NCBI GenBank assembly: GCA_964016885.1
Contig: OZ024740.1
Location: 411,184,001 to 411,248,000, forward strand
Length of the DNA stretch: 64,000 nucleotides
Reading direction: 5' to 3'
From: Eledone cirrhosa
Lineage: Eukaryota
Of this stretch, positions 7,654 through 56,901 are shown in pieces; position 1 is the stretch's first letter, and every line of letters starts with the position of its first letter. The notes beneath the pieces are model-generated. The model was not told the DNA's origin, ran no database searches, and was given only the letters and a program-made list of their open reading frames with translations. A program made the position numbers and the translations under genes.

Positions 7654-7656
<3 letters not shown>

Positions 7657-13879: not shown

Positions 13880-14020
13880 TTAAAAGTTAAATAAGGTTCG
13901 ATGAATAAATCAAAGAATGAGTTTTACAATAGATTGGAAGCACTCAACAGTTGAGGTTTTCCAGAGTTATTAATATTAATTCAAAATATTAACACAATAG
14001 ATATTCTTGTGATCAATTAT

Positions 14021-14085
14021 ATTTTATTATACATATTTCAGAGGTACTGAGTTAAGGTCAACAGTACGTCCTCTTCAGATAAAAT
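14021..14085 (-). ncRNA. Type I hammerhead ribozyme motif (left arm)
   Basis: rc: ATTTTAT-CTGAAGA-GGACGTACTG..CAGTACCTCT-GAAATATGTATA-ATAAAAT. Confidence 0.7.
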
Positions 14086-14192
14086 AAGATGATGCATGAC
14101 ATACCGACATAGTAGATGGTTAAGATTCAGTCATGGCTACCATGCCTGAATCTTAACCATCTACTATATCAGGGTATGTCATGCATCATCTT

Positions 14193-14257
14193 ATTTTATC
14201 TGATGAGGACGTACTGTTGAACTTAAATCAGTACCTCTGAAATATGTATAATAAAAT
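14193..14257 (+). ncRNA. Type I hammerhead ribozyme motif (right arm)
   Basis: ATTTTAT-CTGATGA-GGACGTACTG..CAGTACCTCT-GAAATATGTATA-ATAAAAT; 7-bp stem I, AUA cleavage triplet. Confidence 0.7.
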
Positions 14258-14262
14258 ATAAT

Positions 14263-14349
14263 AATTGTTTCTACTTTAGGTACAAGGCCAGCAAATACCC
14301 AGTGCATTACTGGTACTTTATTTTATCGACCCCGTAAGGATGAAAGGCA
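14263..14349 (-). mobile_element. 5'-truncated SINE with target-site duplication
   Basis: SINE core and tail; flanked by AATAAAATATAAT (14250-14262, 14350-14362). Confidence 0.85.
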
Positions 14350-14398
14350 AATAAAATATAATTGATCACAAGAATATCTATTTTGTTAATATTTTGAA

Positions 14399-15110: not shown

Positions 15111-15256
15111 CACATATATAATTCTCATAGATATATATACTTTTTTTGACAATTGTTTATAATATTTGTATTTTTAGTAAGAATTGAAAGATAATATTGA
15201 ATTAAAATGTTGAAATAATTGCTGACGGCTTGTATACCACGTGGGAGTAAAATAAT

Positions 15257-15436
15257 TGTTTCTACTTTTGTCACAAAACCAGCAATCACCCAGTGCATTA
15301 CTGGTACTTTATTTTATCGACCCCGTATGGATGAAAAGCAAAGTTAACCTCGGCGGGATTTAAACTCAGAATGGCAAGAGCTGTAACTCTATGCATCAAA
15401 GCATGGTGTCCGACCCTCTACCGATACTGCCAGTGA
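15257..15436 (-). mobile_element. Full-length SINE with 12-bp TSD
   Basis: Box A TGGCAGTATCGG, box B-like GAGTTTAAATCCC, core and tail; TSD GAGTAAAATAAT at 15245-15256 and 15437-15448. Confidence 0.9.
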
Positions 15437-15765
15437 GAGTAAAATAATGAAGAATAGCAACGGCTGTATTTTTGGTAGAACTATTTGGGGTTTGTGTGAA
15501 AATGGAAAAGAAATGAAATAAATTCAAAAATAATAGAAATATAATGTAAAGAGATATCCCGAGCAAAACATCTTAAAGACATATTTCAAAAGCTGGAGAG
15601 GGTGAAGTGGATGGTGGATGTATGGGCATTGATGGTATATGTAACAGTATTGACAGTATATGTAACAATTGAACAGAAGGTGGAGTGGTAAGAAGAGGAA
15701 AGTGAGTGGGGAAAGGAAGGATGGGAGATAATTCAATTTATCACAAAAATGAAGGAGGGGGGAGG

Positions 15766-15964: not shown

Positions 15965-16036
15965 CTTCATCCCGGGTTCAATCGGGGGTAACCACAGTAA
16001 GTAACGTACTCAATACAAAACAGAGTAGAAATATTT

Positions 16037-16152
16037 AATACAGAAAGGCTTGTACAGGACTAGAAATGTTTCATTCCGGAGAAATCCTCAGGAAGGTCTG
16101 ATGATTTCTCCGGAATGAAACAGTTCTAGTCCTGTAGAAGCCTTTCTATATT
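16037..16152. repeat. 116-bp palindrome with hammerhead-like cores
   Basis: 55-bp arms, 6-nt loop; CTGATGA..GAAAC on +, CTGAGGA..GAAAC on -. Confidence 0.8.
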
Positions 16153-16206
16153 ATATATATATATAGGAAAACGTATGACCCCGATGACAGAGCTCAAGCC
16201 ATTTCG

Positions 16207-20664: not shown

Positions 20665-20699
<35 letters not shown>

Positions 20700-20704
<5 letters not shown>

Positions 20705-21455
20705 GAGGTAAATATCTCACTGGGTATTAAGTACACATTGAGATATATAGGGTGTCTATAATATAATTGTTGTTCTATGGTACTAATTAGAGATACCAGA
20801 ACTATAAAAATTGATGAGCAGAACAAACAAACATTAAACAATCCTTTAAATAAAATAAAAAATAATTTAAATATCTACCTGTTCATAATGCTATTACCGG
20901 CGGTTTCCATTCACAAAAGAGTGGACATTTATTTAAAGGATTGTTTAATGTTTGTTCGTTCTGCTCATCAATTTTTATAGTTCTGGTATCTCTAATTAGT
21001 ACCATAGAACAACAATTATATTATAGACACCCTATATATCTCTATGGGTACTTAGTACTCAGTGAGATATTTACTTCATTTTAATATATTCTCCAATCTA
21101 TGTAGAGAAAAAAATTCGTTGTTGCTTACTGCTATTTTTTTAGCAGCCAAGCCATCAACAAGTCTGTAATATTCCCGCTTGCTCTAGTGGCTAGGGCACG
21201 TATGGATCACTTTAACGGCTATAACTCATACGAGCTGGTAGTTAGCCTCATATTTGCGGACCATGGGACGTATGTCCTATAGAAAGTAAATAGCTATCTG
21301 ATGAAATCTACTTTCCGTTGGAAATTCTCTGAATTTCAAATCTTTTGTGTATGGAAACCGCCGGTAATAGCATTATGAACAGGTAGATATTTAAATTATT
21401 TTTAAATTTATTTAAAGGATTGTTTAATGTTTGTTTGTTCTGCTCATCAATTTAT
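20700..21455. repeat. Three-segment foldback structure between (TA)n tracts
   Basis: 20700-20853 is inverted at 20928-21083; 20808-20920 is inverted again at 21341-21453. Confidence 0.85.
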
Positions 21456-22799: not shown

Positions 22800-23295
22800 A
22801 CCGACTCTCTTATCCCCCCCTCCACATCTAATACTAATACACTCATCCTTTTCTACGCTTATTTCTCCCAACACCCCTCTCTATATCAATTACCCCTAAA
22901 ATCCTCCTCTCTATATCAATCACCCCTAACATCCTCCTCTCTATATCGGCACTTTCGCATTATCCCTCTCTATATATTTAAAACCATTAAATTCTCCCCC
23001 TCTCTATATCTATCATACAAAACACTCTCCCAATCTCCCTCTCTATATCAATCATCTCTAAACTCTCCCCCATCACCATCTCTATCAAACTCTGTCGTAA
23101 TTGTTTTCTCTCTATTCATCATACATTATTCCCTGTATATCTTTTACGGCAATGCCTCATCCAGTCCCCATCTATATATTCAGCAATATTTATCTCTCCC
23201 AACCCCCTCATTATATCTACAAGCATTGAAATCTACCCCTCTATATCTATATCTACTACACAACACTCTCTCCCAATCCGCCTCTCTATATCAAC
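22800..23295. repeat. Degenerate C/T-rich minisatellite with CCTCTCTATATC core
   Basis: About ten diverged recurrences at irregular 30-60 bp spacing. Confidence 0.7.
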
Positions 23296-23671
23296 CTTTT
23301 TAAATTTCAGTTGGAAATGAAGGTGACGGTGGAGAGAAGTGCCCCTCCCCCTCCAATACATTTGGTTGAATGTGGCAAGAATGGCCCTTGTGAGTGCGCC
23401 TACACTGATCATGCACCTGTAGGCTGGTGAATTTGAGGAGGAGAGGAGTAATCTTCCCGGGTGCCCGCGAAGCTTTGGGTGCTTCAGGATTGGTGGGGTA
23501 CCTGAATAAATCCTGGTTGGTTATCCCCCCCCCCTATTGGGGAATTTTCATTGTTGTATTTTGCTTGTTTATTGATATTGTTTTCCAATTTTTTCTCGAT
23601 TCTGTGTAAAAATCCCTGTCCCCGTCTATTATATTGTCCCCTATATATCAGCCCTTGTGGCCAAGAAATGC

Positions 23672-23716
<45 letters not shown>
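23292..23716 (+). mobile_element. Tx1-like 3' fragment followed by (AAT)n
   Basis: Homologous to 32010-32415; ends GCCCTTGTGGCCAAGAAATGC(AAT)n. Confidence 0.85.
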
Positions 23717-23775
23717 TGTTACTACTTTTGGCACAAGGGCAGCAAGTATCCCAGCAAGTATCCCAGTACATTACG
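23717..23775 (-). mobile_element. SINE 3' fragment
   Basis: TGTTACTACTTTTGGCACAAGGGCAGCAA..CCCAGTACATTAC. Confidence 0.7.
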
Positions 23776-23781
23776 CAATTG

Positions 23782-24196
23782 TCTCTCTACCCTGATTTTC
23801 CTCTTCAAGGGAAAGTTGCAAAAGTTAATCAGGGATTCGCTGAAGAGGAAAGTGTCCGTCTTCAATGCACCCAGTCGATAACCGGATCCGTCCTACACGT
23901 GACAGCAAATGTTCAACATAGCTCCACAAGTCAGCAATGCTCGGACACTGAACGAGTGCGTGCACAACGGTTTCGTCGCTCTGTGCGCATCTCGGACAGG
24001 TTCGGCTGACGACACTTCCGCGCATGTAGAGCTTATCTCGAACCGGCAACGCTCCCCGGTAGCACTGCCAGGCCAAGGATTTCTGGAAATTGTCCATAGG
24101 CCCCGGGCTGAAAGTTCTCTTGAAGAGAGCTAACAGCTGATCGTCTTCGACGCCCAGGGTCTCCTTGAGAACGTCGTCACTCTTCCCCTCCACTAG
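23782..24196 (-). mobile_element. Tx1-like ORF2 C-terminal fragment with internal deletion
   Basis: FQKSLAWQCYRGALPVRDKL..TCPRCAQSDETVVHALVQC zinc finger. Confidence 0.9.
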
Positions 24197-24441
24197 TCTT
24201 CTGTTATTATTATTATTATTATTATTGGCGACCTACGTAGTAAATCGTATCATCGTGAGCTCCGCAAAGGTTTGTTATTTTCAGTTGTTTAAAATTGCCA
24301 TTTATGGAACATTTTTATTGTTAACTATATATAAGTGCACATACATTGATTTCTGAAAGGGACACTAAAAAATATTGGGGCCTTGAGCCCAAAATTTTAA
24401 CTTTTTATAATTATCAGACAAAAATTTTTCTTTGAAAAATC

Positions 24442-26350
24442 ATGGATGACTCAGAATCACTCCTACCTCACAATCTAACAACTCACACCGACACCACCAT
24501 TATAAATATTGCTACGTTTGCCAACACTGGAAATGTAAGCAGTAGCAATATTTTTAATTTGTCTCAGGCAGACGTTCATTTCCCGCCATTACCAATGACT
24601 GCAGGTGTTAAAGCCGCAGCCACCACCACTACCGTGACAACCGCCACCCCCACCACCACGACAGAGACAACAGAAACAAAAGAAAAAAGTAAATTAACTC
24701 GTGATATCGAAATGAATGCAACCAAAATGAACTCTTCCACACCGAACACCACTGACGTCACCACCACCACAGCTGAAACTAAAATTAACAATAGCAAAAA
24801 TAACGATAACAACAACAGCAACAATGAAATTAAGAAAACTACCCTGAGTTTTGCCAGAGTAGCAAAAACGGGCGAAGCGATCCAGGTAACTCAGGAGGAA
24901 TTAGAAGAAGCCAAAGGAATGGTAAAGAAAGATGGGTACAGGATCAGCCTCACCTCCAACCCACCCCCACCTAATAAAATGGAGCAACGTCGCCTATGCA
25001 CCGTGTCTTATCGGACAATTAACATAAAATCGCGCTGAGTGGAACGAGCATCCGAGTCCCAAATCCAAAAAGCTTTGGGACATGTGTGGGCAAAAAAAAC
25101 CCACATCAGACGTGGGCAGATGTATGGAACCGTGGACGTGTTCTTTGAAACACCACAGGAGGCCAGAGAATACTCCATGGCCCCATTAAGACGTGACGAC
25201 TTCACACTCGTTCCAAGCTATTGTGGCCAGAGACTTGTGCAGATAAGAGTGACCCACGTTCCACCGGCCATCGAAATTCCCTGGCTAATGGCTGCCGTCC
25301 TCGCCAGCATCGAGGCCAACACAAAGATAAATGAAATGGCGAAAGAAAAGGAGGAGAACTGGTCCGGATCTGGAATGGATCTCCTGATCCAAGCGGACCA
25401 TAAAAGCATTGAGGATATCCCAGAGGTAATAGACCTCACTGACGGCAGCCGCCTCACCGTAATCGTCGAGGGCAGAGGACCTAGGTGTGTGGTTTGTGGT
25501 GAAGGAACCCACCTAAGGGCTTTCTGCCCTCGGGCTAAAAGGTTGAGGCCACCTCTCTTACCCACCCCAGTGACTCAACCATCAACACCACCAGCAGGAG
25601 AAATGGCAGCAACAGCTGTAGCAGCCACACAACAGCAGAAGCAACTGTAACAGCAACAACCCCAGCAACAGTAGCAAAACCAACACCACACCACCCAATG
25701 CGCCAGAACTAGCACCAGCGCCTACACCATCCACCACGCCACAAGCAAAATCAACGCCTGGGGAGGATTTTCCACTCCCCGGCTTATCGCAACTGGAGAC
25801 AGGTTGTGACGACGAGGAGTGGGAAACGGTATCAGGAAAAATGAAAAAAAAGAAACCAAAAAAGAAAAAAATCTCTTCCTTCCCCCTCCAAAAACAAAAT
25901 ATACAAAGAAACAAATAAATTATCAAACAAAAAAGTTAGGACAGATATGCCACCATCCACACCAGAATCACCAACAAACACCACAAATGTCACCAAAAAG
26001 CGTAACAGAAACAAACCCACAACAAACGCAAACAAAACAAAACAACCAAAACGATACACACTACACAGCATTAAATTTTAACAACAACCAATTATTACAC
26101 TACATGCAACACAACACCAGCATCACAGAAAAAGACTACACAACAACCCAAAAGTTCACACCACCTCCACACATACAAATCACTCGCATCACACAGAAAC
26201 GTACACGACACTAAAACAAAAATTCACCAAAGACATCGGAGACTTCAGACAAACACTCTCCAGGAGGATTTATAAGTCATCCTTCCGGAGGAGGCCACAA
26301 ACAGTGAAAAGGATGGACAAACCATCCTTCCTCTACGAGATGTAAGGTAA
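24442..26350 (+). pseudogene. Tx1 ORF1 (gag-like, CCHC knuckle), disrupted
   Basis: Thr-rich N-terminus, SFARVAK, CVVCGEGTHLRAFC knuckle, basic KKKKPKK stretch; stop at 25038 and frameshifts. Confidence 0.85.
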
Positions 26351-26384
26351 GTGGTCTTTCCCATCTTTTCCACTCCATTTCAAC

Positions 26385-28640
26385 ATGACCTCACTCAGAA
26401 TAGGCAGCATAAATGCGCGTGTTTTGGGTTCGTCATGGAAGCAAGCCCACCTGCTCAACGACCTCAGGTCACTGAACATAAATGTAGTGGCCATCAGCGA
26501 AACCAGAATCTCCGAAGCACGGGCCTTCGCACCGATCTTCGGCGGCTACGATGTGTACGCATCCGCCAGCCGTCCGGGATCGGGGGGAGGAGTTGCTGAG
26601 CTTTTTCGGAGTGTTTGGTATCTCGCCATACGGGCCATCTTCCTGGACCCAGAAGGTAAGTTGGTGGTGCTAGACGTGACCAGCGGAGACGGGCAAGCTT
26701 TCAGGCTAGTGGCCGTCTATGCCCCGACAGGAGCAGGGCGGCCTGATTTCTTCCGGCGTCTGAAGACCTTTCTTGGAACGTCCCGCTCTTTAGTGTTAGT
26801 GGGCGACTGGAACGAGATCTTAGATGCACGCTGGGACTGTGTGGGATTAGCGGATAGAGGAGCAGGGTGCGAGAGTCTCACCAACCTGCTCAGGCGTTTT
26901 GAACTGTCTGACAGGTACCGATTGGATTTCCCGAATGTGCCAATGTGGGCTTGGACAAATCGCATGGGGTCATCCAGATCATATCTAGATAGAGTATTTT
27001 GTAGAGAAATAGATAGGTCTAGCATAGGCTGTCCACAATTCAAGATAGTCAGCTACACGGACCACAAATTCTTGATCTGTGTGCTTGACTTAGATAGGCT
27101 TCATAGACGAGGACCCGGCTACTGGAAGCTAAACGCGTCCTTACCAGCGCGCAAGATCTACAGAGACCGGATTAGCGAACTAGTTAAGCGGGCATTGACG
27201 GCGGCAATCGTCAACAACAAGTGGTGGTTTGATCTGAAAAGAGCAATTAGAATAGAGTCCATTAGGTTTAGTAAGGCTTTAGTAATAGAGGAAAATAGGG
27301 CAGAGGGAGAATTAGTTAGAAAATTAGACGAGGCGCTTAGCAAAGGCATCGCGACCGACGTACTTGCGGCGAAATTGGCCCTTGACCAATTCTTCAATGC
27401 AAAGCACGAAGGCTGCGTTATCAGAGCTGGGCTGCGTGCTCTCAGACACGAGAGGACGAAAGCAGTTCAATGGGCCCGAGTGGCGGAGGCGCGTGGTGGC
27501 AACAAAGCCACGATCCGGTCTTTGGTGGACCACGACGGGCGCATGCTACCCGATCCCGGGCAAATGTTTGAAGCTTTTCAGCTACACTTCGTACAACTGA
27601 TCGGGGGCAGCGGCGGGCCGGATCGAGGGATGGACTTTAGTGTATACCTCGACGGACTTCCGCGGCTCTCGGCCACTGGGGCGGAGTGTTGCGAAAAGCC
27701 GATAACAGCCGCTGAAGTACGGCAGGAAATGACTGGCTGCACAAGGAGTAAATCGCCTGGTTTGGAAGGTCTGCCCTATGAACTTTACGTACAAATGCCA
27801 GACTTGTTCGGAGGCCTCTTGGTGGACGTCTACTGCAACTGGCAACAGAACGGGAGAATTCCCAGCTCTGTGAGCCGAGGAGATGTTGTGCTGCTGAGAA
27901 AGGATCCGAACAAGGGGGATAACATAGATAATTTTAGGCCCATAACTCTGCTAAACACAGAGTTCAAGATTTTGGCCAAGGTGCTAGCAAAGAGGTTGGC
28001 GCTTGTCGTTGGTGGTCTGGTGGGAGAGGCGCAGACATGCGCCATTCCCGACAGATCCATCCACGACAACCTCCACCTCATGCGATACATAGCAGAGAGG
28101 GTAGCTAGGGAACCTGGTACGGGTGGGTCCTTGATCAATTTAGATCAGTCGAAAGCTTTCGATAGGGTCGACGATCGTTACCTAGCGGCAGTCCTGAGGG
28201 CGGCTGGCTTTGGCCCCATCTTCAGAGGCTGGATCGCTGCCATGCACAGCGACATCTGATCTGTGTTGAGAGTGAACGGTCACCTTTCGGAACCATTCAA
28301 CATCATGACCTCGGTCCGCCAAGGATGTCCCCTCTCGTCCCTCTTGTACGTATTGACTCTCGAGCCATTACTGCACAAACTGGAGACGTCGATGTGGGTC
28401 CCGCGCGAGCTAGGATGCGGAAGATCCGTGTCAGCATATGCGGACGATGTCACCGTAGTGGTGTCGAACGCCAAACACATCGAGACGATCGGCACTACAC
28501 TAAGAGAATACGAAGCGGTGACAGGAGCAATGATGAACCAGGAGAAGTCAGTGGGCCTGCAGCTCGGAACCTGGAGAGGCAGGTCCATGCCGTCCAACAG
28601 CGTCGCCGGGCGCTGGACGGACGGACCGGTTAAATTGCTA
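26385..28640 (+). pseudogene. Tx1 ORF2a (APE endonuclease + RT), stop at 28259, truncated
   Basis: SINARVL, ISETR, VYAP, GDWN, YLDR, TDH; FRPITLLN, LDQSKAFD, VRQGCPLS, AYADD. Confidence 0.92.
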
Positions 28641-28744
28641 AATCCCAAAAGAAACCCCACTAACTATGGAGGTCGAACAACCCGACCTTCACAAGAGTCC
28701 GGAAGGTAAGTAAACCTTCCTCTCTCTCTGTTTAACCTGCCAAC

Positions 28745-31700
28745 ATGGCCGTATTAAGAGTAGTATGTTTATATGTTCGAGGCCTGGGATCGTCCTGGAA
28801 GCAGGGTCTCCTGCTCAACGACCTCAGGTCTATAGAAATGGATGTAATTGCAGTCAGCGAGACCAGGATTTCCGACACGCGCGCACTAGCCCCCATTTTC
28901 GACGACTATCAGATCTTTGCATCTATTAGCCAGCCTGGAATGGGAGGCGGAGTGGCAGTGCTGTTTAGGAAAGGCCTGGGTCTCGAGGTAAGGTCGATCT
29001 TCCGAGACCCGGACGGGAAGTTGGTGGTCCTAGACGTGAACAATAATGAAAGTGGTGCCTTTAGACTGGTGGCCGTCTATGCTCCTACTGGGGCAGGACG
29101 GCCGAACTTCTTTAGACGCCTGGAAGCCTTTCTGGGTACGTCTCGCCCTTTACTGTTAGCGGGGGGCTGGAACGGCATCTTAGACGCACGCTGGGACTAT
29201 GTGGGAGTATCCGATAGGAGCGGGGGGTGCAAATGCCTCAAGAACCTGATCAGCCAGTTCCAACTGTCTGAGAGGTACCGACTAGATTTCCCTAATGCGC
29301 CAGTGTGGACCTGGGCTAACCGCATAGGGTCATCTAGATCGTATATAGACAGGATATTCATTAGGAAAATAGACAGAAATAGTGTAAGCTGTGCACGTTT
29401 TGAAACGGTCGCCTATTCAGATCACAAGTTTGTGATCTGTATGGTTGACCTAGATAAGACGCGTAGGTTAGGACATGGTTACTGGAAGCTAAACATGTCA
29501 TTACCGGCACGTAAGGCTTACAGGGACCAGGTCAACCATTTAATTAAGACAATTTGACAGGGGGAGTCGTCAACAATAGATGGTGGGGGGCTCTCAAAAG
29601 AGAGATTAGAGTAATGTCGATAGAGTTTAGCAAAGAAGTAGCATTAGAGAAAAATAGAAAGGAGGGAAAGTTGGTAGATAAGTTAGACGAGGCTATTGGT
29701 AGTGGCATTGCAACTGATGTGCTAGCGGCGAGAATGGCATTAGACCATTTCTTCAATGCGAAACACGAAGGTTGCATTGTCAGAGCTAAGGCACGTGCTC
29801 TGAGAAACGAGGGAACCAAAGCTGTTCGATGGGCACGCGTGGCAGAGGCGCAGCGTGGTAATAAAACCACGATTCGGTCTTTGACGGACCGAGACGGGCT
29901 CGAGCTGAGCGATTACAAGAGAATGTGTGAGGTCTTTCGCCAACATTTTGCTCGGTTGTTCGGGGGAAGTGGCGGGTCAGAGATGGTGGCGGATTTCAGT
30001 CCCTACCTCGATAGCTTGCCGCAACTCTCGACGGCTGACGCTGGGCGCTGCGAAAGGCCAATTACTTCAGCCGAGATTCAGGATGCCCTTGTAGGCTGCA
30101 TGAGGCGCAATTCACCCGGTTTTGATGGTCTGCCCTACGAGCTTTACGTAAATATGCAAGACTTGTTCTCCACATCCTCGAAGCGCTCTACTGCAACTGG
30201 CAGTAAAACGGGAGTATTCCCGGTTCTGTGAGCCGGGGCGTAGTGACGATGATAAGGAAAGACGAGAACAAGAGGGGCACATTAGACAATTTCTGGCCCA
30301 TAACTCTGCTCAACACAGAGTTTAATATTTTGGCCAGGGTGTTAGTGAAGAGGTTGGCGCTTGTCGTCGGGGATTTGGTTGGGGAGGTGCAAATTTGCGC
30401 AATCCCAACCAGGTCCATACACGACAACCTCCACCTAATGCGATACATCATAGAGAGGGTAGGGTGTAAACCTGGCTTCGGTGAGGCTCTGATCAATTTA
30501 GATCAATCGAAAGCATTCGATAGGGTCGACCATCGGTACCTGGAGGCTGTCCTCAAGGCGGCTGGATTCGGCCCCGTCTTCAGAAGCTGGATCGCTGCAA
30601 TGCACAGCAGCACCTGCTCGATGGTCAAAATTAATGGCCACCTCTCGGAACCGTTTCAGGTCTCCCAATCGGTCCGTCAAGGGTGCCCTCCCTCCTCCCT
30701 TCTGTACGTATTGACTCTAGAGCCTTTACTGCGGAAGCTGGAGCTGCTGCAGGGCATCACGCTCGAACCGGGAATCGGAAAGGCTGTGTCGGCTTATGCG
30801 GACGACATCACCGTGATAGTATCGGACACCTCAGAAATCGAGGTGGTCGGCAACTTATTGGAGGAATATGAAAGGTTGACGGGAGCAAAACTTAACCCAG
30901 AAAAGTCAGTGGGCTTGCAACTCGGCACCTGGAGAGGCAAGTCCATGCCGTCCAACAGCGTCATTAGGCGCTGGACGGACGGACCGGTAAAGTTGCTAGG
31001 GGTTTGGTTCGGGCCAGACCTCCAGGTGGATAAGAATTGGGACGAAGTGACGGGCAGGGTAGTCAGTCTCACCCAGAAATGGGCTGGGATGAAGCTATCA
31101 TTGAAAGGTCGGGCGGAGGTGGCGAACGCGTACAACGCATCCTTCATCTACTACCGTCTGACTGTCGTTCCTTGCCCCCGTTCGCGCCTCGCCATCTTGG
31201 AGCGGCTCCTCTTCAAATTCTTGTGGAGGTGTCAGGTTCCGCTGGTGAGGCGGTCCATCTGCTGCCAGCACCCTCTACGTGGAGCGCTGGGAATGCCGTG
31301 GCTAATGATGCGCAGGCACGCGCTGAGGCTGCGGCATCTCCAGATACTCTGCCTACACGGTGAACAGGTGTGGTCGCCGTTTGTCAGACTGGCCTTTCCG
31401 CAGCTCGTTTTTTTGACTGAGTTGCACCCGAGACTGGGTGACTGGCATCTGGAATGTTGCCAGGCACTCACTGCCCTCTACCAGGCGGGAAATTCGGTCA
31501 GTGGAACTTCCACTCTCGAGTTCTATAGAGGATTAGTGGTGGGCAAGTGCGACGACGCACTCGGAGAGGCTCTGTGAGTCAACGAGGTCGAACTAACCAG
31601 TCTGTACCGGAGGACTTTCGAGCCGGGGACGATGGATAATTTCCAAAAATCCCTCGCTTGGCAGTGCTACCGGGGGGCGCTACCGGTTCGAGATAAACTC

Positions 31701-32147
31701 TACAGACACGGAAGTGCTGTCAGACGGACCTGCCCGAGATGCTCGCAGAGCGACGAAACCGTTCTGCACGCACTCGTCCAGTGTCCGTGCATTACTGACT
31801 TGTGGAGTTATGTTGAACAGCTGTTGTCGCGTGTAGAACGGATCCGGCTATCGGCCGAGTCCATAGTGAAGATCGACCCGCCGCCTTCTTTTGGCCAGGA
31901 AGGGCAGGCAATTTTCGTCTGTCTGGTGGCAGTAGCGAAAGAGGTTGTATGGTGGACGAGGTTGAAAGGACTGAAGACAGACACTTTTCTCTTCGGCCAA
32001 TCCCTCATCAACTTTTTCAAGTTTCACTTGGAAAGGAAGGTGAGGGTGGAGAGAGAAGTGCTGCTCCCCGGTACATTTGCTGAAAAGTGGGTGAATGTGG
32101 CGAGAACGGCCCGTGTGAGTGGGCCTACTCTGGTCATGCGGCTGTAG
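28745..32147 (+). pseudogene. Tx1 ORF2b (APE + RT + CCHC zinc finger) of a second subfamily, frameshifted
   Basis: VSETR, VYAP, YIDR, SDH, GYWKLN, LDQSKAFD, AYADD, TCPRCSQSDETVLHALVQC. Confidence 0.92.
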
Positions 32148-32456
32148 GTGGGTACATTTGAAGAGGAGAGGGGTGCCCTTCCAGGGTTCTCTCGAAGCGT
32201 CGGGTCGTTCAGGACTGGTGGGGTACCTGAGCGAACCCTAGGTGGTCTTCCCCCCTATTGGGGAATGTTTTCATGTTGTAATTTTCTTGTTACTTTATTG
32301 TTACTTTGTTATTGTTACTTTGTTTATTCATATTGTTTACTCGATTTTTCTGTAAAACCCCACTGTCCCAGTCTTTTGTATTGTCCCTATATGTCGGCCC
32401 TTGTGGCCAATAAATGAAATCATTATTATTATTATTAATATTATTATTATTATTAT

Positions 32457-32495
<39 letters not shown>

Positions 32496-37609: not shown

Positions 37610-38530
37610 ATAATGAGGCCTTTGACACCATCCTACAGAACATCCCTGTATTAAAAAAGGACCATAGAAAACCAAATCCTTCGAACACACGATATCATAA
37701 AGAGCAAAAGAAAATCTAAGACAATGAAAAACATCCTAACACATGCCAAAGTACTGCCAACCATAACAACGAAATCCACAGTAAAAAAATGCGATAGACC
37801 TAACTGTGGTACATGCATCAACCTAATAGAGGTTTCTGAATTCTATTTCAAGCAAGGACAACGTTTTCACAATTTCACATGCGCATCAGTAAACCTAATA
37901 TATGTATTAACTTGCTCAGGTTGTCGAGAACAATACATAGGCCAGACTAAAAACAGCCTCCGCCAACGCATGACTGTCCATAGATCCAAAATCAAAATAC
38001 GGGAATACACAAAAATTAGCACTGAGTTAACACATTGATACTTGTGCCGCCCCAAATCATCCCAACTTTAGAATCTTTCCCCTCTATAAATTTAAAGATA
38101 ATGCCACCTACACCCAGCGCATCAGCAAGGAATCTCACTTTATTAACAAATACGGACCCCGTCTAAACACTTCTTCCAAAGACGAACCCACAACTTACAC
38201 ACGTCAACATACATACCTACATCAGTATACATCCTACATACATTTCTATCCACATATAAACACAATGACATACGTAAACACACATGTTCTATGGTGTAAC
38301 ACAAATATACACAAATTCGCATACCTTTTGATGTTTATAGATATACACTTGTCGATACGCACACATACACACGCGCACACATATATTGCACATTGATCGG
38401 TGCATACATATTTGTACACAAGTATCCCATACGGCAGGGCCTAATGGATTCCCCTTGCAGTACGTACAATCTGGACTCACACACGCCTTGTTGTTATGAC
38501 AATACTCTACATCATTTCACCTCTTTTATT
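37610..38530 (+). mobile_element. 5'-truncated Neptune-type Penelope (GIY-YIG), related to the 9070 copy
   Basis: CDRPNCGTCINLIE...NLIYVLTCSGCREQYIGQTKNSLRQRMTVH. Confidence 0.88.
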
Positions 38531-39195
38531 ATTGACTAGCAGAGGTAACCGGCGTTGCCCGGTATAACTCTCAATGGAGTAGTCGTTCAAATGAACCGAA
38601 AGACTTCCCTTAAACATGACTATAGAAGTAACAATTTATAGGTGTTGGCCCTAAAGAGGGCCTTTGAACGTTCACTTTGAAATATCTCTGTGGCGGTGCT
38701 GCCAGCAAAGACGAATCCGATGATAACAATTTAAAGTTGGTGGCCCTAAAGAGAGCCTTGGATCGTTAACTCTTAAAAGTCTCAGCCGCGGTGCTGTCAG
38801 CAAAGACGACTCCGATTCGAGGTGGTGGCCCTTAAGAAGTCCTTCACACCACTTTGTAATGTCGTATTTGCTTTGCTTGTTATTTGAGATTGTAACCTAG
38901 AAAAGCATGTAACAGCCGGGGGCCACAAAAACGGCCTTGACAAGATCACGATGGAATGTCAAAAAAATGTGTAAATAAGATGTAGGGAAAAGGAGATTAA
39001 TTAAAACTACGGAACACCGATAGCAAAGCGTAATAGCAACATATAAATGCGGAAAACGGAGACATTGAACATTTATAACGTATAGCAAAAGCAACCTCAG
39101 AGGCGTACGTGGTATTGTCAAAAGGACAAAAATAGCACACGGATACAGCAAATGTAAGCACAAAAACAGCGATTACTTGTTGGCGGATTGGGTGC

Positions 39196-41660: not shown

Positions 41661-42198
41661 GTAATACCTCCCAAGCCACTTTTTTCACATAAAACAGGAA
41701 GAATTTCCAAAACTGATCAGATTAGAGCAAAACTCACGAGCACTCTATCTCAAAATTATTTTTGAAAAGCACAAGAAATGCGCAACCGATTAAATCTTAA
41801 AACTAAACCTGAATACTAACTAATACTTATTACTAATTTATACTTATTCCTAATTAAACTATTTTTCACTAGGAAAAATTTGTCAGCATTTTCTTTTCCT
41901 TTTTACTAATATATATATATATATATATATATATGCGTAATGAAGTTATTGAACACACTGTGCTGGGTGGCTCATGAATCTAAACCAAAACATTGCGATC
42001 ATGAGTCGAACATGCGAACCCCTAAGACACGTGTCTTCGTGCATAACACATAAATGGCAAAATAAAAATGCCTACTGCAATCCATTTTGTAATAAGTTTT
42101 CTCCATGTTTTCATACAGCACCATCGATCGAATTGATCAACAATCTTTTCGTCAAACCTAGGCATTGTTTGACGATATGTCTGTGAGTGTTACTCTTA

Positions 42199-42334
42199 TA
42201 ATTGTTTCTACTTTTGGCACAAGGCCAGCAATTATCCCAGTGTATTACTGGTAATTTATTTTATCGACGCCGTAACGATGAAAGGCAAAGTTAACCTCAG
42301 CTGCAAAGCATGGCTTCCGACCCTCTACCGATAC
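42199..42334 (-). mobile_element. SINE with internal deletion removing box B
   Basis: Head GTATCGGTAGAGGGTCGG, core, tail GCTGGCCTTGTGCCAAAAGTAGAAACAATTAT. Confidence 0.85.

Positions 42335-44252: not shown

Positions 44253-44330
<78 letters not shown>
44030..44330 (+). mobile_element. RTE-like LINE 3' fragment followed by (AAT)26
   Basis: Degenerate GGRPRSRPPAR*LD...DRNVWKVPLETLP resembles RTE C-termini; (AAT)n at 44253-44330. Confidence 0.65.
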
Positions 44331-45122
44331 CGGAGACTGAAGGACTGATTATATCAGCACAAGATCAGTGTCTGCCAACAAAAAATTACCAAGCCAACAT
44401 AATAAAAAATGGGTGCAGCCCATTATGCCGTGTATGCAAAAAACAACCAGAGACCATTGACCATATAATTTCAATGTGCAGTCCTATAGCTCCAACCGAA
44501 TACCTAAACAGGCATGACAGAGCTGCACAATACATACATTGGATAATGTGTAAGCATTTTGACCTGCCCCATCAAAAGAATTGGTGGGAGCATCAACCAC
44601 CTCGCATACTTGAAAAAGATCACATCTCAATCTTGTGGAACTTTAGCATCCAAACAGACCGAAAAATAGATGCAAATAGACCTGATATAATATTGAAGGA
44701 CTTTAAAAAGAGGGTATGCCTGCTAATTGATATGTCTGTTCCAATAGAAAAGAATGTATCTATAAAAACATTTGAAAAATTGAGCAAGTATAAGGACCTG
44801 GAGATAGAAATTGGAAAAATGTGGAAATTGAGAGCTAAAACAATACCAGTGGTTGTAGGCGCTCTGGGAATGATACCTAAGGGGTCTAATGATTACATAT
44901 CGCAAATCCCAGGAAACCCGCGTACAGGAGAAATACAAAAGATAGTACTAATGGGAACTGCCCATATACTAAGGAAGATTCTGTCAATATAAGTACATCA
45001 CAAGTCTAAACACTAAAGATGCATGTGTGAATATGTATGTTCTTTCTTGAACATGGCGGACCTTGTCTCTTGAGGTCACTGGTTGTGACTTGGTGATAAC
45101 TCGTATGAAGATAAATGTAACT

Positions 45123-45154
<32 letters not shown>
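44331..45154 (+). mobile_element. 5'-truncated R4/Dong-like element (family C) with (TAA)n tail
   Basis: CRVCKKQPETIDHIISMC, RHD, RPDII, DMSVP, EKLSKY; nearly identical to 54351-55178. Confidence 0.92.
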
Positions 45155-46100: not shown

Positions 46101-46399
46101 GTCCCCACTAAAAGAGGAATGCATCAAAATATATAAATAGACTGATCTGATGACCCGGTCAAAATCAAAATCAAAAAACCAAAAATCAAAATCAAAGCAG
46201 CACAGCAACAACGAAAAACGTAAAGAAAAGAAAAATGAAAATAAAATAAAAGAAAATAAAAGAAAAACAAACGGACGGACAGAGAAGGGAGGGGAAAATC
46301 TAAGTCAGACATTCGAACATTGCATTACAATGAAAATTATGCTTATTCTTTTTTTTCTTTTTTTTTCTGCCTGTTTGATTGTTTGTTTATTTATGTTCG

Positions 46400-49300
46400 T
46401 CTACAGCGTGATAGTGCAACACAAAAATCACCTGGAGTGACGAAATCACCGGAGGTGATGAAATCTCCGGTGGTTATGTAACCATACATTCACCAATCCT
46501 CGATAAGAGTGTTTAAATGTCGAACCTAAACAGTTCGAATAACGGTGACGTGGAGACTAGAATGTCATGTGACCCACTCTCACCCAGCAGGTGCTCTCTG
46601 GCTCAGCAGCAGGGACCTGTCTGTCGAACAAATGCTACTGGTGTCGGAGGAAGAAGAAGAAGGAAAGGGACCAGAACCAACTGGACGAAAGAATTGAATA
46701 GAACTGTTATGCAATGTTACCTGAAGAGTAACCCCAAGGAGAAAGGCTATAGGAAACGGATGCATGACATCTGGAACGAGATTGGTCTACTTAAATTAGA
46801 TGAAAAAAAATTGGCCGGGCAGGCTCGGGTAATAAGAACTAATGAGTGGATAAGCGAGCTGGAACTGGAGGAAATGAGCAGAGAGATTAGCTTGGAAATG
46901 GAGAGTGGAGTATGCCAGGCAAACGAGCCAGTGGGAAATGAAGGTAAAGAGGTTGAGAGAACGGAGGAACCATCCGAAGCAGACAATGATCTGAATGCTG
47001 AAATAAATAATACCTGGAACAGAGATACGGCCATTGAGGAGATGAATGCTGACGGGCTAGGACAAGATTTGGTTGATATCCTAAACTTAGTGGTAGATGA
47101 ATTGAACAATGATAGTGGGAAACCTATGAACCTAAGATTTGTAGACAGGAAAAAGTTAAAAGAAATAACAGCTAAGGTAAACAAAGTAATCCCATACCTT
47201 GAGGCGAGGAGCCTTCACCAGTGCAACAATATCCTCAAAGCAACAGCAAATACGGTGAGGAAATTACTTGGTATAAAAGCGAGAGGAAACAACAAAGAAG
47301 AAAGATCAGAGCCTTGTTGGAAGAAACGACGTAATGGTCAAATCAGGGAAATGAGAAATGACATGGGAAAGATTGAGTCGCTACTGAATGGGACACTAAA
47401 AATCATAGACACTAAATATAGACTGGAAATAAAGAACAAAACTAGGAGGAAAAAGCTAAATATTATCATAGAGGAACTGAAGCAACGCATTGTAGCAAAG
47501 AGTGCAAAAATCAGGCGATACGAGAGCAGAGTCAGTCAGTATAGACAGAACCGCATCTTTGACAACAACCAGAAGATGCTGTTTGGACAGCTTGAAGGGA
47601 AAGAAAGATGCAACGACTTGATCCCTGAGGCGGAACAAACTAAAACATTCTGGAGAGAAATATGGGAGCAGGATGTTAAACATATTGACCAGGCAGTGTG
47701 GATTGAGACAGTACAGAAGGAGATTAGTGAACAGGCACACCAACAAAATGATTTGAGTATCACAGTTGAAACTCTTAAGGGGCAGGACAAAAAACTAACC
47801 AACTGGAGATCGCCAGGCCCAGATGGTGTGCAGGGGTTTTGGATTAAAAATATAACATCCCTCCACCCGAAACTGACAACCATGTTCAATGACAGCTTGA
47901 TGTCAGGTGAGGTACCAGAGTGGTTGACAAAAGGTACCACAGTTCTGATAATGAAAGACCGAATCAAGGGTAATGATGTTACCAACTATAGACCTATCAC
48001 ATGTCTGTCCGTAATGTGGAAACTGTTGACAAGCATTATGTCTGAGGAAATCTACGATCACCTACACACAAACAACTTGTTACCGGACGAACAGAAAGAA
48101 TGCCGAAAGAGATCCCGTGGTACAAAGTACTTATTGATAAGATGGTAATGAGGAATTGCAACAGGAGACACACTGGTCTTGCCATGGGATGGATAGACTA
48201 CAAAAAGGCATTTGACATGGTGCCTCATTCTTGGATCACCAAAAGCCTAGAGATCTTCAGGGTGGCAGATAACATAAGCCAGTTGTTGGGCAAAAGTATG
48301 AAGACCTGGGAAACATAGTTAACATCAGCTGGAGAATCCTTGGAAGGCGTGAAGATCAAGAGAGGTATCTTCCAGGGAGATAGTCTGTACCCTCTGTTGT
48401 TTGTCCTTGCCCTGATGCCCCTGACCATTTTACTGTGAAAAGTGAGAGCAGGATACAAGTTGGGAAAGGGAGAGCTTACCATCAATCACCTCCTCTTCAT
48501 GGACGATCTTAAGCTCGTCGGGAAGAGTGAGAAGTAGCTGGATGTGATCATTGACACTGTCCGTATTTTCAGCAATGATATATGTATGCAATTTGGTATT
48601 AGTAAGTGTGGAGTCCTTGTGATGAAGAGGGGTAAATTGAGCAGAAGTAACGGAATCCAGGTACAAACAGGTGAGATAATAAAGGAAATTGACACCGAGG
48701 AGGGATACAAGTATTTGGGTGTTCTGGAGGCTGATGACATCAACACCAAAAAGATGAAGGAATTGATAAGAAATGAATACATTCGGAGAGTAAGGAGCGT
48801 ATTAAAGTCACATCTGAACAGTAGGAATGCCATAAGTGCAGTAAATTCCCGAGCTGTGTCTATTATTAGGTACAGTGCGGGAATTCTGAGATGGAATGTT
48901 GCTGAACAAAAACAAATGGATAGGAAGACTAGGAAGCTATTGACTATCTACAACATGTTCCACAAAAGGAGTGATGTCGATAGACTCTACTTAAGGAGAT
49001 CTGAGGGTGGAAGAGGTCTTATCAGCATAGTGGACTGTGTTCAGATGGAGAAAAACAACCTACACAAATACGTGACTGATAGTAAGGAGCCAATGCTCAG
49101 AACTGTACTGAAGGAGAGGACAATAGATCAGGGGATGTCCAAGGAGGAAATAACAACAAGGAGAAAGAGCAGCCTTCAGGAAAAATCCCTTCATAGTACC
49201 TTCTTTGAGAAAACTGAATTCAGAGATCCACAAACATGGAACTGGTTGTAAAGAGGAGACCTTAAAAAGGCTACAGAAGGAATGCTAATGGCTGCGCAAG

Positions 49301-50035
49301 AGCAGGCTCTCAAAACGAAGTGGTTGAAACACCAAATTTACAAGGAGGAGGCTAGCAAACTGTGCAGGATATTTGGAGAGAGAGAGAGAAGAGACTGTGG
49401 CTCACATTGTATCCGAGTGTAAACACCTAGCCCAGACTCACTATAAATGCTGGAGACATGATGTGATGGGCAGGGTGATACACTGGCACCTATGCAAAGT
49501 AAACAATTTACCACATTCTGAGAAGTGGTATGAGCATAAGCCAGAGTCGGTGATTGAAAACGATCAGGTGAAGGTGCTGTGGGATTTTAGGATACAGATG
49601 GACAAGAAACTGGAACACAATAGACCTGACCTGGTGGTTTTGGACAAAGAAAAAAGATCGTGCCTGATTGTGGATGTGGCCTGCCCATTCGACACGAGAG
49701 TGCAATAGAAGGAGAGGTAGAAAATTAACCGATACCAGGACTTAAAGTGGGAGGTAAAAAGGATTTGGAACTGCCATGAAGTCAAAGTGGTCCCGATTGT
49801 CATAGGCGCACTAGGTACTATCTCAAAAAGTTTCCAGGGATGGTTAAAGAAAATTGGCCCCTTCACGCTTTTTGGAACGCTTCAAAAGGCATGCTTTCTG
49901 GGGACAGCAAGAACCATCCGATACGTCCTGAATATCTGAGGCTGCAGGTAGTGGCTTGATATTCATTTCAACAAACTTTCCAGTTAACTAACATCAATGA
50001 CTGAGACTCAAAGAACAATAATAATAATAATAATA
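46400..50035 (+). mobile_element. Near full-length R4/Dong-like RLE element (family B), several stops, (TAA)n tail
   Basis: ORF from 46517: WTKELNRTVMQCY..GYRKRMHDIW, SPGPDG, YRPITCL, IDYKKAFD, RGIFQGD, FMDD, WRHD, RPDL, DVACP. Confidence 0.92.
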
Positions 50036-50935: not shown

Positions 50936-51111
50936 GATATAAATAGATTGACTTAGTGACCTGGCCACCGGCCAAACGTCAACATTAACAACTATGGGAC
51001 TGCTGGCTCACCCCTTCCTCACCAACAATATAAAAAGCCCCGGCACCACCACCGACATAGCCAACAACAAGAACAGCCAACTACAACAAAAAGTATATTA
51101 TATTATTGTAA

Positions 51112-51158
51112 TGCAGTGGGTGATTGCTGGCCTTGTGCCTGGAGTGGAGACAATTATT
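51112..51158 (+). mobile_element. SINE 3' fragment
   Basis: TGCAGTGGGTGATTGCTGGCCTTGTGCCTGGAGTGGAGACAATTATT. Confidence 0.7.
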
Positions 51159-51169
51159 AATAATTTCAT

Positions 51170-54100
51170 TCTTAAGCCACGCAATGCTCACATTAAGGAA
51201 CCACTCATGATAATAACAATTTAAAAAAATAACAAAAAGAAAACCCCGTGACCAAAAAATACCGGGATAGCGGCCGGCGGGGAATAGCCGTGTCTCTAGG
51301 GGAGAACGACCCCTCTAGTCTTGGTTGACACTCGTTCTAGAAGTGGTAACACGAAATGATTACCCCTTGGCGGATAAGGATATAACGCGACAAAATAAAG
51401 TAAATGTCTAATGATAAAATCTCATACCGGATCGGCCGTCACCCGGGTAAAAAAGGGCCGCGTCCCTCAGAGAGGAAGCAGACTGGGGTCGAAAAATCAG
51501 CTAATGGTTCAAACCTTCCCATCACTTCGGAGCTGGAGACCTCCCATAACCGGAATACTCCTACTGTTGGCCATCCATGCTCAACACCAAGAAATCCAAA
51601 GAAAAAGAAAGAAAAATGGTCAAGGGAAGATAATAAAGAAGTCTTTGAGGCTTTCTACACTGCCATGTACTACCCATCAAATACATCGAATATAGAACAG
51701 ACATATATCAACTGGAAAAAGAAACATCCCGAAAACAGAGGCTATATTGACAGTAACAAACTAGCCAATATACGAAGAAATATTGTAAGAAAAAAGTTAC
51801 TAACTGATATAGAAATTGATCAGATCAAGCTATTAGCACAAAGTCAGCGAAGGGAAAATGAAACATGTGTCAGTGAAAACGAGGTAAACTGTAACACTTC
51901 GAATCCCAGAGTTGGGGCGGAATCACTGGCAACAGAACAAATTAAACAAAGGATCGAAAAAGTGGAGGGAGTGCATGCTCAGGATGAAACTCCAAATGAA
52001 AATAATGAGATCGTAAATGATAAAGAAATGAATGAGAATGAACTTGCCAACTTGAAGGATGAAATTATGATCGAATGGATGAAAATGAAAGAATCTGACA
52101 TGGGGAAACGAGACACCCTCCCTAAGATCCAGAACTCCAAACAGAACCAAAAGATAATACACAAGACTAACATAGTTCTCAAAAACATTATCATCACAAA
52201 CAACTAAACATTACTGATTTAAATCATCTCCATTATGCATCGGCTAAAGTCACCACTCACTTATGTGGAGTGAAGATGAAAAAACAAAGGAATTCCCACA
52301 AGAAATCTACTTGGCAAGAGAACATCAATCGCCAAATAAACCTTCTCCGATCTGACATAGAAATTTTAACAAACTATAAAGTAGGTGAACATGTTAAACA
52401 AACTTAGAAAATTGAAAAAAAAGTACAGTATAAAATCAACATGTGACATAGACATGCTGATAAAAATAATCAAGCAAAAAGTGTCGGCCAAAGCTGCTCG
52501 TATAAGGCGCTTTGAAAAACGATCTAAATTCTATAAGGACAATAATATGTTCAAAAACAACCAAAGAAACTTCTACAGAAAAATTGGTAAGTCAACAATA
52601 ACTGCTAAATCAATACCACCCAAGGAGGAAGTGCAAGAATTCTGGGAAAAGATCTGGGCCGAAGAAAAAGTTCATAACATACATGCCCCATGGATAGGCA
52701 GACAAATGAAAGATACAGCTCACCTTGCAGAACAAACATGGGAAAATATAACAGTTGAACAGTTGCGCTTGGCTCTAAGAAAAACCAGCAAATGGAAATC
52801 CCCAGGAAAAGACAAAATACAAAACTTTTGGATAAATGCCTTCACAGAGTCTCATGAGCTGTTAGCCCAACTTTACAATGAAATAGTTAAGGAGCCAGAA
52901 AAGATACCTTCATGGCTAGTTAACGGCATTACATTCCTGCTTCCGAAGAATGATGAGACAAACAATCCCCAAAATTACAGACCGATAACTTGCTTGACCA
53001 CAATGTATAAAATTTTAACATCAGTCCTAACTGAATACACATATGACCACCTGATAACAAATGACCTATTTCCCATTGAGCAGAAAGGGTGTAAACGAGG
53101 CTCATATGGCTGTAAGGATCAGCTTCTGGTTAACAAAATAATACTGGAAGATTGTCATCATAGACACAAAAATCTATCGATTGCTTGGATAGATTATAAA
53201 AAAGCATTCGATAGTTTGCCACACAGTTGGATTGAAAAATGCTTAGAGATTTTCAAAATATCCCCCGTTGTCAGGAGGTTTTTGTCATTCAGTATGAAGA
53301 CATGGAAAACGACACTCCTTTTGAATAGTGAAACAAAATCACTGGAAGCTGGAGAAGTTAATATTAATTGTGGAATTTTTCATGGTGACTCTTTATCACC
53401 GCTTTTATTCTGCATCGCACTTATAACATTAAGTAAAATGCTCAATGAAACAAAACATGGATATAAAGTCTATGACAAAACCATTAATCACCTGTTCTAC
53501 ATGGATGACCTGAAACTATTTGCAAAAAATGATGAACAATTGCAAGGGCTATTATCCACTGTGAAGCAGTTCAGTGATGACATTAAAATGGAGTTTGGAC
53601 TAGATAAATGCGCCAAAGCAACGTTCACCAGAGGAAAGCTGCTGAAGAGTTCAGACATTAATCTTGATCGGGGGAACGTGATAAGAGAACTTGATCAAGA
53701 AAAAACTTACAAATATCTAGGTGTTTGTGAAGGAGACGGAATCAAGCACTCGACAATGAGGGAAAGGATAAGGAAGGAATGTTACCGCAGAGTAAGAGCA
53801 ATCTTAATAAACACGCTTGCCATACCAGTAGTAACCTACAGTTACAATGTCATCAACTGGTCAAGCACAGAGATCCGTAGGCTCGATACAAAAATTCGAA
53901 AATGCTTAACCATGCACAGAATGCATCACCCTAAGGCATATACAGATAGAATATATCTCCCTAGGAAAGAAGGAGGACGTGGGTTAATCCAGTTAGACAT
54001 TGCGTTGAAAACTGCAACAATTGGATTATCTACATATCTAAGGGAATCACATGATTGGATGATCAAACTCGTTTTGAAACACGAAAGCATCAAAAGATCA

Positions 54101-55178
54101 TATTCCATTACAAAAGATGCACAAAGATACAGTAATGGACTACAAATTTCAGAAGTCCCATTTACTGCTGAAATGGAAAACACAGAAAAAGCAAAGCAGG
54201 TAAAAGTAACTGCAAAGAAAGAACTGCTACAGAAACTGGCTAAGAAATGGCAAGAAAAGCCTCTGTATGGAAAATACCCAGAGCGAGCTAACAATCCTGA
54301 TGTTGACAAAACGTTAACCCATCAGTGGTTTACATCCTCTGGACTGAAATCGGAGACTGAAGGACTGATTATATCGGCACAAGATCAGCGTCTGCCAACA
54401 AAAAATTACCAAGCCAACATAATAAAAAATGGGTGCAGCCCATTATGCCGTGTATGCAAAAAACAACCAGAGACCATTGACCATATAATTTCAATGTGCA
54501 GTCCTATAGCTCCAACCGAATACCTAAACAGGCATGACAGAGCTGCACAATACATACATTGGATAATGTGTAAGCATTTTGACCTGCCCCATCAAAAGAA
54601 TTGGTGGGAGCATCAACCACCTCCCATACTTGAAAAAGATCACATCTCAATCTTGTGGAACTTTAGCATCCAAACAGACCGAAAAATAGATGCAAACAGA
54701 CCTGATATAATATTGAAAGACTTTCAAAAGAGGGTATGCCTGCTAATTGATATGTCTGTTCCAATAGACAAGAATGTATCTATAAAAACATTTGAAAAAT
54801 TGAGCAAGTATAAGGACCTGGAGATAGAAATTAGAAAAATGTGGAAATTGAGAACTAAAACAATACCAGTGGTTGTAGGCGCTCTGGGAATGATACCTAA
54901 GGGGTCTAATGATTACTTATCGCAAATGCCAGGAAACCCGCGTATAGGAGAAATACAAAAGATAGTACTAATGGGAACTGCCCATATACTAAGGAAGATT
55001 CTGTCAATATAAGTACATCACAAGTCTAAACACTAAAGATGGATGTGTGAATATGTATGTTCTTTCTTGAACATGGACGACCTTGTTGTCTCTTGAGGTC
55101 ACTGGTTGTGACTTGGTGATAACTCGTATGAACATAAAGCAAGATAAATGCAACTGTAATAATAATAATAATAATAAT
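51170..55178 (+). mobile_element. Full-length R4/Dong-like RLE element (family C); 875-codon open RT-CCHC-RLE stretch
   Basis: ORF 51404-52207 (WSREDNKEVFEAFY) and 52385-55012 (SPGKD, YRPITCL, IDYKKAFD, GIFHGDSLSP, YMDD, CCHC, RHD, RPD, KLSKY); (TAA)n tail. Confidence 0.95.
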
Positions 55179-56898: not shown

Positions 56899-56901
56899 TT
56901 T

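Follow-up and report, generated by a model that had tools for sequence, protein, structure and literature searches.

This locus raises the question of which LINE copies an abundant SINE of the octopod Eledone cirrhosa. The window (the whole stretch of DNA that was analysed, 64,000 nucleotides of contig OZ024740.1) is set in a genome of 3.0 Gb where the LINEs are Tx1-type, RTE, Dong/R4, CR1-like and Penelope elements. A sequence-only reading had suggested that the SINE is mobilised by the ORF2 protein of the Tx1-type LINE through a 3' hairpin that both possess. Mobilisation by Tx1 ORF2 is supported, with the group that targets (ATT)n and not the (ATCT)n group as the most likely partner, and the participation of the hairpin is something that we infer. 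Because SINE and LINE have the same hairpin-shaped end, the same ATT repeat and the same kind of landing site, the SINE likely uses the Tx1 copying enzyme.

The Tx1 end at 32396 has the sequence that had been described, GGCC-CTTGT-GGCC followed by (ATT)n, and terminates a LINE whose ORF2 contains the Pfam domains Exo_endo_phos (APE), RVT_1 (RT) and zf-RVT (Table 1). Human L1 ORF2 is the best solved relative of Tx1 ORF2 (E 1e-27), and R2 is found at E 2e-13. The label Tx1 in preference to L1 is presumably correct, given the target preference; none of the 120 ORF2 relatives listed is a named Tx1 reference. The nearest named relative among these 120 is from Argonauta hians (66%), and no relatives of the C-terminus were found in metagenome or prokaryote collections. 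The set of LINEs in the genome resembles that given for Octopus vulgaris in PMC13282606, as far as its Table 1 goes.

Table 1. Features of the window (positions counted from its first letter)
Feature	Position	Strand	Remarks
Old Tx1 3' fragment, AT/ATCT-tailed group	1-305	+	hairpin GTC-CCTGT-GGC at 280-290
SINE, almost full-length	590-770	+	hairpin variant TGGC-ATTGT-GCCA at 739-751
SINE, 5'-truncated	14259-14351	-	
SINE with A and B boxes	15251-15440	-	16-nt duplication led by ATTAT; hairpin mutated
Tx1 3' fragment	23290-23671	+	hairpin GCC-CTTGT-GGC at 23651-23661; end damaged
SINE 3' end with (ATT)15	23672-23766	-	directly fused to Tx1 ORF2 fragment 23775-24202
Tx1-type LINE, subfamily B (5' end, ORF1, part of ORF2)	24227-28640	+	(ATT)7 ahead; abuts the A2 copy
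Tx1 5' UTR hairpin	24378-24389; 62579-62590	+; -	also in 5' UTRs of L133, L136, L147, L235
Tx1-type LINE, subfamily A2, 5'-truncated	28643-32421	+	ORF2 broken; APE/RT/zf-RVT at 28736-32147
Tx1 3' hairpin GGCC-CTTGT-GGCC, subfamily A	32396-32408	+	arms GGCC 32396-32399 and 32405-32408, loop CTTGT 32400-32404; pair probability predicted 0.96-1.0 inside own 3' UTR
AATAAA and terminal spacer TGAAATC	32409-32421	+	AATAAA at 32409-32414; 17 nt between loop and first ATT
(ATT)n run, tail and target	32422-32457	+	
SINE, internal deletion	42198-42330	-	modal hairpin TGGC-CTTGT-GCCA
Dong/R4-like nest	44328-45124; 46295-50016; 51201-55157; 55179-56823; 62816-64000	+	
SINE 3' end, decayed	51108-51160	+	
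SINE, 5'-truncated	56824-56901	-	inside ATT run of a Tx1-B copy, same orientation
Tx1-type LINE, subfamily B, almost full-length	56939-62740	-	ATT runs on both sides; 3' hairpin 56952-56964 with one private mismatch

All nine further sites cited in the sequence-only reading exist, but four corrections are needed. The hairpin at 280 is real but belongs to a different Tx1 group, with AT/ATCT repeats instead of ATT. At 23651 the end of the copy is damaged and lies directly against a SINE tail in reverse orientation, and at 56963 one pair is disrupted by a change private to that copy, the subfamily itself having AACC-CTTGT-GGTT. The SINE ends are present, but several of them are followed only by ATTAT and by no long run, and those at 739, 14290, 23735 and 51128 are variants.

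The window also contains repeats of other kinds. Two Dong/R4-like families (a clade name that we assume from the C-terminal motif) have (AAT)n ends, share the microsatellites of Tx1 on the opposite strand, and at least five of their copies are nested together. A Penelope-like piece that matches GIY-YIG weakly is present in two diverged copies (9452-10001 and 37612-38151). Long inverted repeats, probably MITEs or palindromes, are located at 14016-14262, 20693-21089, 7624-7760 and 16031-16158. On the minus strand at 38622-38816, the histone 3' UTR stem-loop is matched below threshold by each of two tandem 95-nt units (scores of 26.5 and 24 bits against a cut-off of 34).

The terminal motif of Tx1 was present in 106 of 114 matches to the ORF2 C-terminus and absent in eight, in sampled loci that lean to subfamily A. 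The stems of the ATT group vary between subfamilies (GGCC/GGCC, GGCC/GGCT, AACC/GGTT and AGCC/GGCC), and the loop CTTGT and the ATT run are found throughout. A separate young group has the stem TGCC/GGCA, the loop CTAGT or CTGGT, and runs of AT or ATCT; no SINE with an end like that of this (ATCT)n/(AT)n group was seen. In this young group (L250-L274) all 150 matches listed are 100% identical over 185 aa, and there are many frames of 1153 aa. The hairpin directly adjoins AATAAA in all groups, and predicted folds give it a probability of 0.64-1.0 in Tx1 3' UTRs. The genome contains 1,243 exact copies of one 30-nt subfamily A end.

Another hairpin is situated about 35-60 nt upstream of ORF1 in all four ATT-group subfamilies checked, the 5' UTRs being otherwise different. 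In A, A2 and A' its stem measures 11-12 bp and has changed on both sides. Subfamily B has shorter arms, a loop CTTG(A/T) like that at the 3' end, and a different predicted fold.

The SINE is about 190 nt long (215 nt in an older form) and consists of a tRNA-like head, a central block and a tail that ends with TGGC-CTTGT-GCC(A/T) and then ATT. It displays the features of its class: short and non-coding, with many dispersed copies, 5' truncation, duplications and a repeat tail. The exact 35-nt end has 98,239 copies in the genome and its reversed control none. Of 116 copies, 106 have an A-box-like motif and 95 the B box GWTCRANNC, and internal TTTT is limited to 12. Neither ARAGORN nor Rfam called a tRNA or gave anything relevant. 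When 240 copies were traced beyond the central block, the tail was short in 157 and of the longer, older kind in 33, and the other 50 copies were broken or differed. The 157 young copies include 72 with the full 4-bp stem, 43 where the outer pair is broken and nine with the loop ATTGT.

The central block, a candidate for the Deu/Nin superfamily, is also present in unrelated SINE-like repeats of metagenome records (80 loci, read by eye). Because it occurs there with other heads and tails, the tail appears to be a local acquisition. The block was not found in prokaryote genomes, and no match was seen between the central domain and bivalve Meta, V and CORE rows. SINE copies also form tandem arrays, each unit having arisen by insertion into the ATT end of its predecessor or by duplication there (G000 C1:226689512-226690495, L004, L028, L154, L313). 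On contigs of three other organisms, the cover on the Tx1 3' UTR is concentrated in the last 40 nt and that on the SINE in the central block; as summed depth over ATT-rich sequence, this only hints at a conserved and abundant hairpin end in those organisms.

The likeness between the tails was assessed by a 3'-anchored alignment of the last 36 nt, against LINE ends from a sample (790 kb of random sequence and 20 endonuclease matches), not a census. The older long-tailed SINE end is identical to the Tx1-A end in 26 of 37 columns, which was matched by none of 3000 shuffles and by one of 6000 genomic 36-mers. The young SINE end is equalled by 7/3000 shuffles and 9/6000 genomic 36-mers, and SINE ends constitute five of the seven top-scoring genomic 36-mers listed. 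Compared with all five Tx1 ends, the older SINE end has z scores of 3.6-5.9 and the young end 2.4-3.4. All ten rival ends (three RTE, two Dong/R4, four CR1-like and one I-like) remain at 1.7 or below, so the search for a better-matching LINE produced no sampled end that fits the SINE tail. The distance from the loop to ATT is 16-17 nt in both SINE and Tx1, confirming the similar spacing. Short matches can mislead, because the 5' UTR hairpin of Tx1-B, which is probably unrelated, scores against the SINE tail like the true 3' ends or higher (z 4.2 and 3.9). The SINE-form hairpin combined with AATAAA gave 14 genome matches, all 14 of them SINE copies, so this search revealed no hidden LINE that has precisely this end. 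No SINE subfamily with a full Tx1-type tail was seen, the three matches being two Tx1 copies and a short Tx1 end behind an old SINE.

Covariation was analysed in 12 hand-picked rows, eight from Tx1 and four from the SINE. Stems that differ yet still pair had been noted from the window, and this holds, with two-sided stem changes across Tx1 subfamilies: 44 of the 48 cells are paired, with two-sided changes in three of the four pairs over the 12 rows. The percentage paired is higher than in all 500 shuffles and all slid controls, and the covariation score of 0.568 is reached by 0/500 shuffles and compares with at most 0.174 in slid controls; because the rows are related, these figures are no probabilities. 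The count of two-sided pairs is not above that of shuffles (126/500). The hairpin is short and weak (3-4 bp, -1.0 to -5.1 kcal/mol), and isolated hairpins are no more stable than shuffles in any of 13 pieces (z -1.0 to +1.2). In whole SINE RNA (85 copies) its predicted probability is 0.05-0.11, and pairing of the 5' arm with upstream sequence is possible there. The probability rises to 0.75 only if the terminal 45 nt of the SINE are folded alone, and it is below 0.2 for the older form.

The target was studied from duplications and flanking sequences. Half of the 116 full-length SINEs (58) have duplications of at least 10 nt, 46 of them not pure ATT (null 2.8/114), and among 56 truncated SINEs 25 are duplicated, 15 not with pure ATT. 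The SINE duplications have a median length of 17 nt and begin with ATTAT, almost all being led by ATT. ATTAT is present in the 5' flank of 81/116 SINEs and 38/41 full-length Tx1 copies with a background of 5%, and the ATT context of the SINE is inflated because part of the SINE set came from the flanks of loci picked by Tx1. Tx1 duplications are mostly pure ATT and uninformative, with SINE-form ones in unique DNA at L060, L140 and L298; nine of 11 truncated Tx1 copies have no duplication. The (ATT)n run is the insertion target as well as the tail, and since the tail primes on it, a shared target is no independent evidence. The independent parts of the target likeness are the duplication length and the strand.

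Directly after 110 Tx1 tails, a SINE follows 20 times on the same strand and never on the opposite strand, and Dong follows nine times on the opposite strand and never on the same; another Tx1 sits in 26 of the 110 tails. A SINE comes after 6 of 30 ATT-group tails versus 0 of 27 ATCT-group tails (p 0.025). The target-site signature of the SINE is like that of Tx1 and not that of the CR1-like family. SINE and Tx1 insert into each other, and the nearest-neighbour identity is 94.5% for the SINE (77 copies) and 96.8% for Tx1-A ends (25 copies), so their ages overlap. One ATTAAA site in the spacer between the ORFs of Tx1-B is the end of two SINE insertions (L147:3714-3757 and L137).

Seven SINE/Tx1 hybrids have their crossover at the hairpin, one of them flanked by a 17-nt duplication. 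In L313, the SINE body and hairpin continue into the terminal 13 nt of Tx1-A without a mismatch, and a 17-nt ATT-rich repeat is found at the flanks; a template switch at the hairpin would produce this structure. Three strings cross from SINE to Tx1 and three from Tx1 to SINE at the loop, these six being known as matched strings only. Hybrids can also be produced by deletion between neighbouring copies. In the window at 23672-24202 (minus strand) a 430-nt Tx1 ORF2 fragment is fused to a SINE 3' end and faces another Tx1 end head to head; it was not counted as evidence because insertion followed by deletion between two ATT runs fits as well as template jumping. Some candidates were discarded. 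A SINE tail inside Tx1-B is a private insertion in the L147 copy and no feature of the family, most of 25 false chimera rows arose from this insertion, and the L278 candidate is really a SINE insertion with a decayed duplication.

These observations can be combined in a mechanism. An ancestral SINE would have captured the last ~35 nt of Tx1 RNA, and AAUAAA and one stem pair would have been lost since. RNA polymerase III would transcribe the SINE from the A and B boxes and run on through the AUU region. The hairpin with its CUUGU loop would be bound by Tx1 ORF2 in the same manner as zebrafish L2 proteins, which read the loop via the region between endonuclease and RT (available part of PMC4176376). 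The endonuclease would nick the strand opposite ATTAT, and the freed ...TAAT end would pair with AUUA 16-17 nt beyond the loop, where the RT would start. A second nick about 14-21 nt further would then give a duplication starting with ATTAT. It is very probable that the SINE is mobilised by the (ATT)n-targeting Tx1 group, and by analogy with the zebrafish proteins the hairpin is probably the handle. The combined account, hairpin-guided mobilisation by the ATT group, is fairly likely.

Chance or convergence of short AT-rich ends, from which no partner could be read, would be another explanation of the likeness. The common stretch is only ~35 nt, the young SINE end reaches only z 2.4-3.4, and the 5' UTR hairpin of Tx1-B does as well or better. 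However, descent predicts a closer fit for the older form than for the young one, and this is what is seen (z 5.9). The aligned stretch ends precisely at the 3' terminus and keeps its spacing, and the hybrids cross at the loop. We regard chance as highly improbable. It is very unlikely that the SINE is moved by another LINE, either the (ATT)n-tailed CR1-like family or one that is extinct or outside the sample. The survey was sampled and not exhaustive, the random sample contains 90 SINE ends against 5 ATT-group Tx1 ends, and the CR1-like family is young with many intact 957-aa frames. Nevertheless, the CR1-like end gives z -0.4 and 0.5 against the SINE tail, and the family has duplications in 0/20 and an ATTAT flank in 1/20 copies. 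Dong/R4 ends with (AAT)n on the opposite strand, and RTE with (TGA)n or (AT)n and another hairpin.

The remaining alternative accepts Tx1 ORF2 as the enzyme but makes it relaxed: pairing of the AUU repeat with the nicked target suffices, and the hairpin is what remains of the captured end, its role in Tx1 being in 3' processing beside AAUAAA. Mammalian L1 is relaxed (available part of PMC3472496), the Tx1 hairpin abuts AATAAA in all groups, the probability of the hairpin is low in whole SINE RNA, and variants of the loop and the outer pair are tolerated. On the other hand, the SINE has lost AATAAA but retains a pairable stem, with G-C where Tx1 has C-G. The hairpin also outlived the deletion by which the longer, older tail became the short young one, and the loop-to-ATT spacing stays at 16-17 nt. 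A relaxed enzyme is unlikely, and guidance by the hairpin remains the preferred reading.

Two of the other LINE groups have features of their own. The CR1-like family (L203, L210-L229) is young and (ATT)n-tailed, has a 3' end of ~125 nt that is tandemly repeated, and lacks target duplications. RTE-like LINEs (L066, L067, L076, L153, L172) have a PHD finger inside the RT, and their different hairpin end with (TGA)n is common to many short elements. A cluster of short elements with this end accounts for 40 of 81 ATG tracts in 790 kb, and together with the RTE-like LINEs they probably constitute a second SINE-LINE pair.

SINE-LINE pairs with a shared tail are of a textbook kind. The pair described here resembles eel UnaSINE/UnaL2 and the zebrafish ZfL2-1/ZfL2-2 pairs (PMC4176376 and Table 1 of PMC3747384, available parts) in the tRNA head, the central body, the short LINE-like 3' stem-loop end, the variable stem with a kept loop and the simple-repeat tail common with the LINE. 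It differs in that the partner is of the L1 clade (Tx1-type) instead of L2/CR1/RTE, and the hairpin is much smaller (3-4 bp) with ~35 nt in common at ~70% identity, known here from sequence comparison. Stringent L1-clade pairs have been described for ZmSINE2/3 with LINE1-1_ZM and SINEX-3_CR with L1-1_CR (PMC3472496 and PMC3747384, available parts). Ohshima's list of 58 pairs contains only three of the L1 clade, from plants and an alga, and none from an animal or with Tx1 in the parts available (PMC3747384 section 1.4 and Table 1; PMC3472496). These plant and algal pairs likewise have an L1-clade LINE, a common 3' sequence, compensatory stem changes and a kept loop, but as far as described in those parts they end with poly(A)/poly(T), in contrast to the (ATT)n that is also the target here.

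Mobilisation by Tx1 has been proposed before. SINEU of crocodilians was assigned to Tx1-Mar by target preference and overlap in age, with no LINE carrying its 3' end according to the available part of Kojima 2015 (PMC4494074). SINEU has snRNA heads and poly(A) tails, unlike the tRNA-like head and the 3' hairpin segment common with Tx1 here. Kibi and Koshi, as cited in the same part of PMC4494074, are likewise Tx1-type, insert in simple repeats and form tandem arrays in their own tails. Their targets are (TC)n and (TTC)n respectively, compared with (ATT)n in one E. cirrhosa group and (AT)n/(ATCT)n in a second. The word Tx1 does not occur in Kojima's survey of SINE-LINE similarity (PMC5786205). 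No shared-tail Tx1 pair or partner of an octopus SINE was found in the available literature, and a prior mention in a database entry (Repbase, Dfam) is possible. The SINE-Tx1 tail pairing is a variant of the known shared-tail partnership.

Octopus tRNA-derived SINEs, named OK, OR1 and OR2, were reportedly described by Ohshima and Okada in 1994. Compared by description only, these and the "tRNA-Core" and "tRNA-Deu" SINEs of PMC8967140 (available part) are similar to the present SINE in being very abundant and tRNA-headed with a widely common central block. The available parts of PMC8967140 and PMC13282606 present SINEs as a main component of octopus genomes and name no partner LINE for them.

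It is conceivable, as a tentative extension, that octopod Tx1 is an animal L1-clade lineage that has kept strict RNA recognition. A code of loop and repeat (CUUGU with ATT, CU(A/G)GU with AT/ATCT) might then set which group a SINE can parasitise, the 5' UTR hairpin might be a further binding site for ORF2, by analogy with R2, in which both RNA ends are binding sites, and the SINE, among the commonest in this genome, might owe its spread to a hairpin of 13 nt.

The finding provides a testable, specific driver for one abundant SINE family. It bears on whether L1-clade elements were ancestrally stringent and later relaxed (Ohshima 2012). The published support for this consists of the three plant and algal pairs, to which a pair with a common tail from the Tx1 branch of animals would add a missing data point. 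The genome also offers a built-in experiment, as its young Tx1 groups differ in loop and tail and the SINE uses one and apparently not the other.
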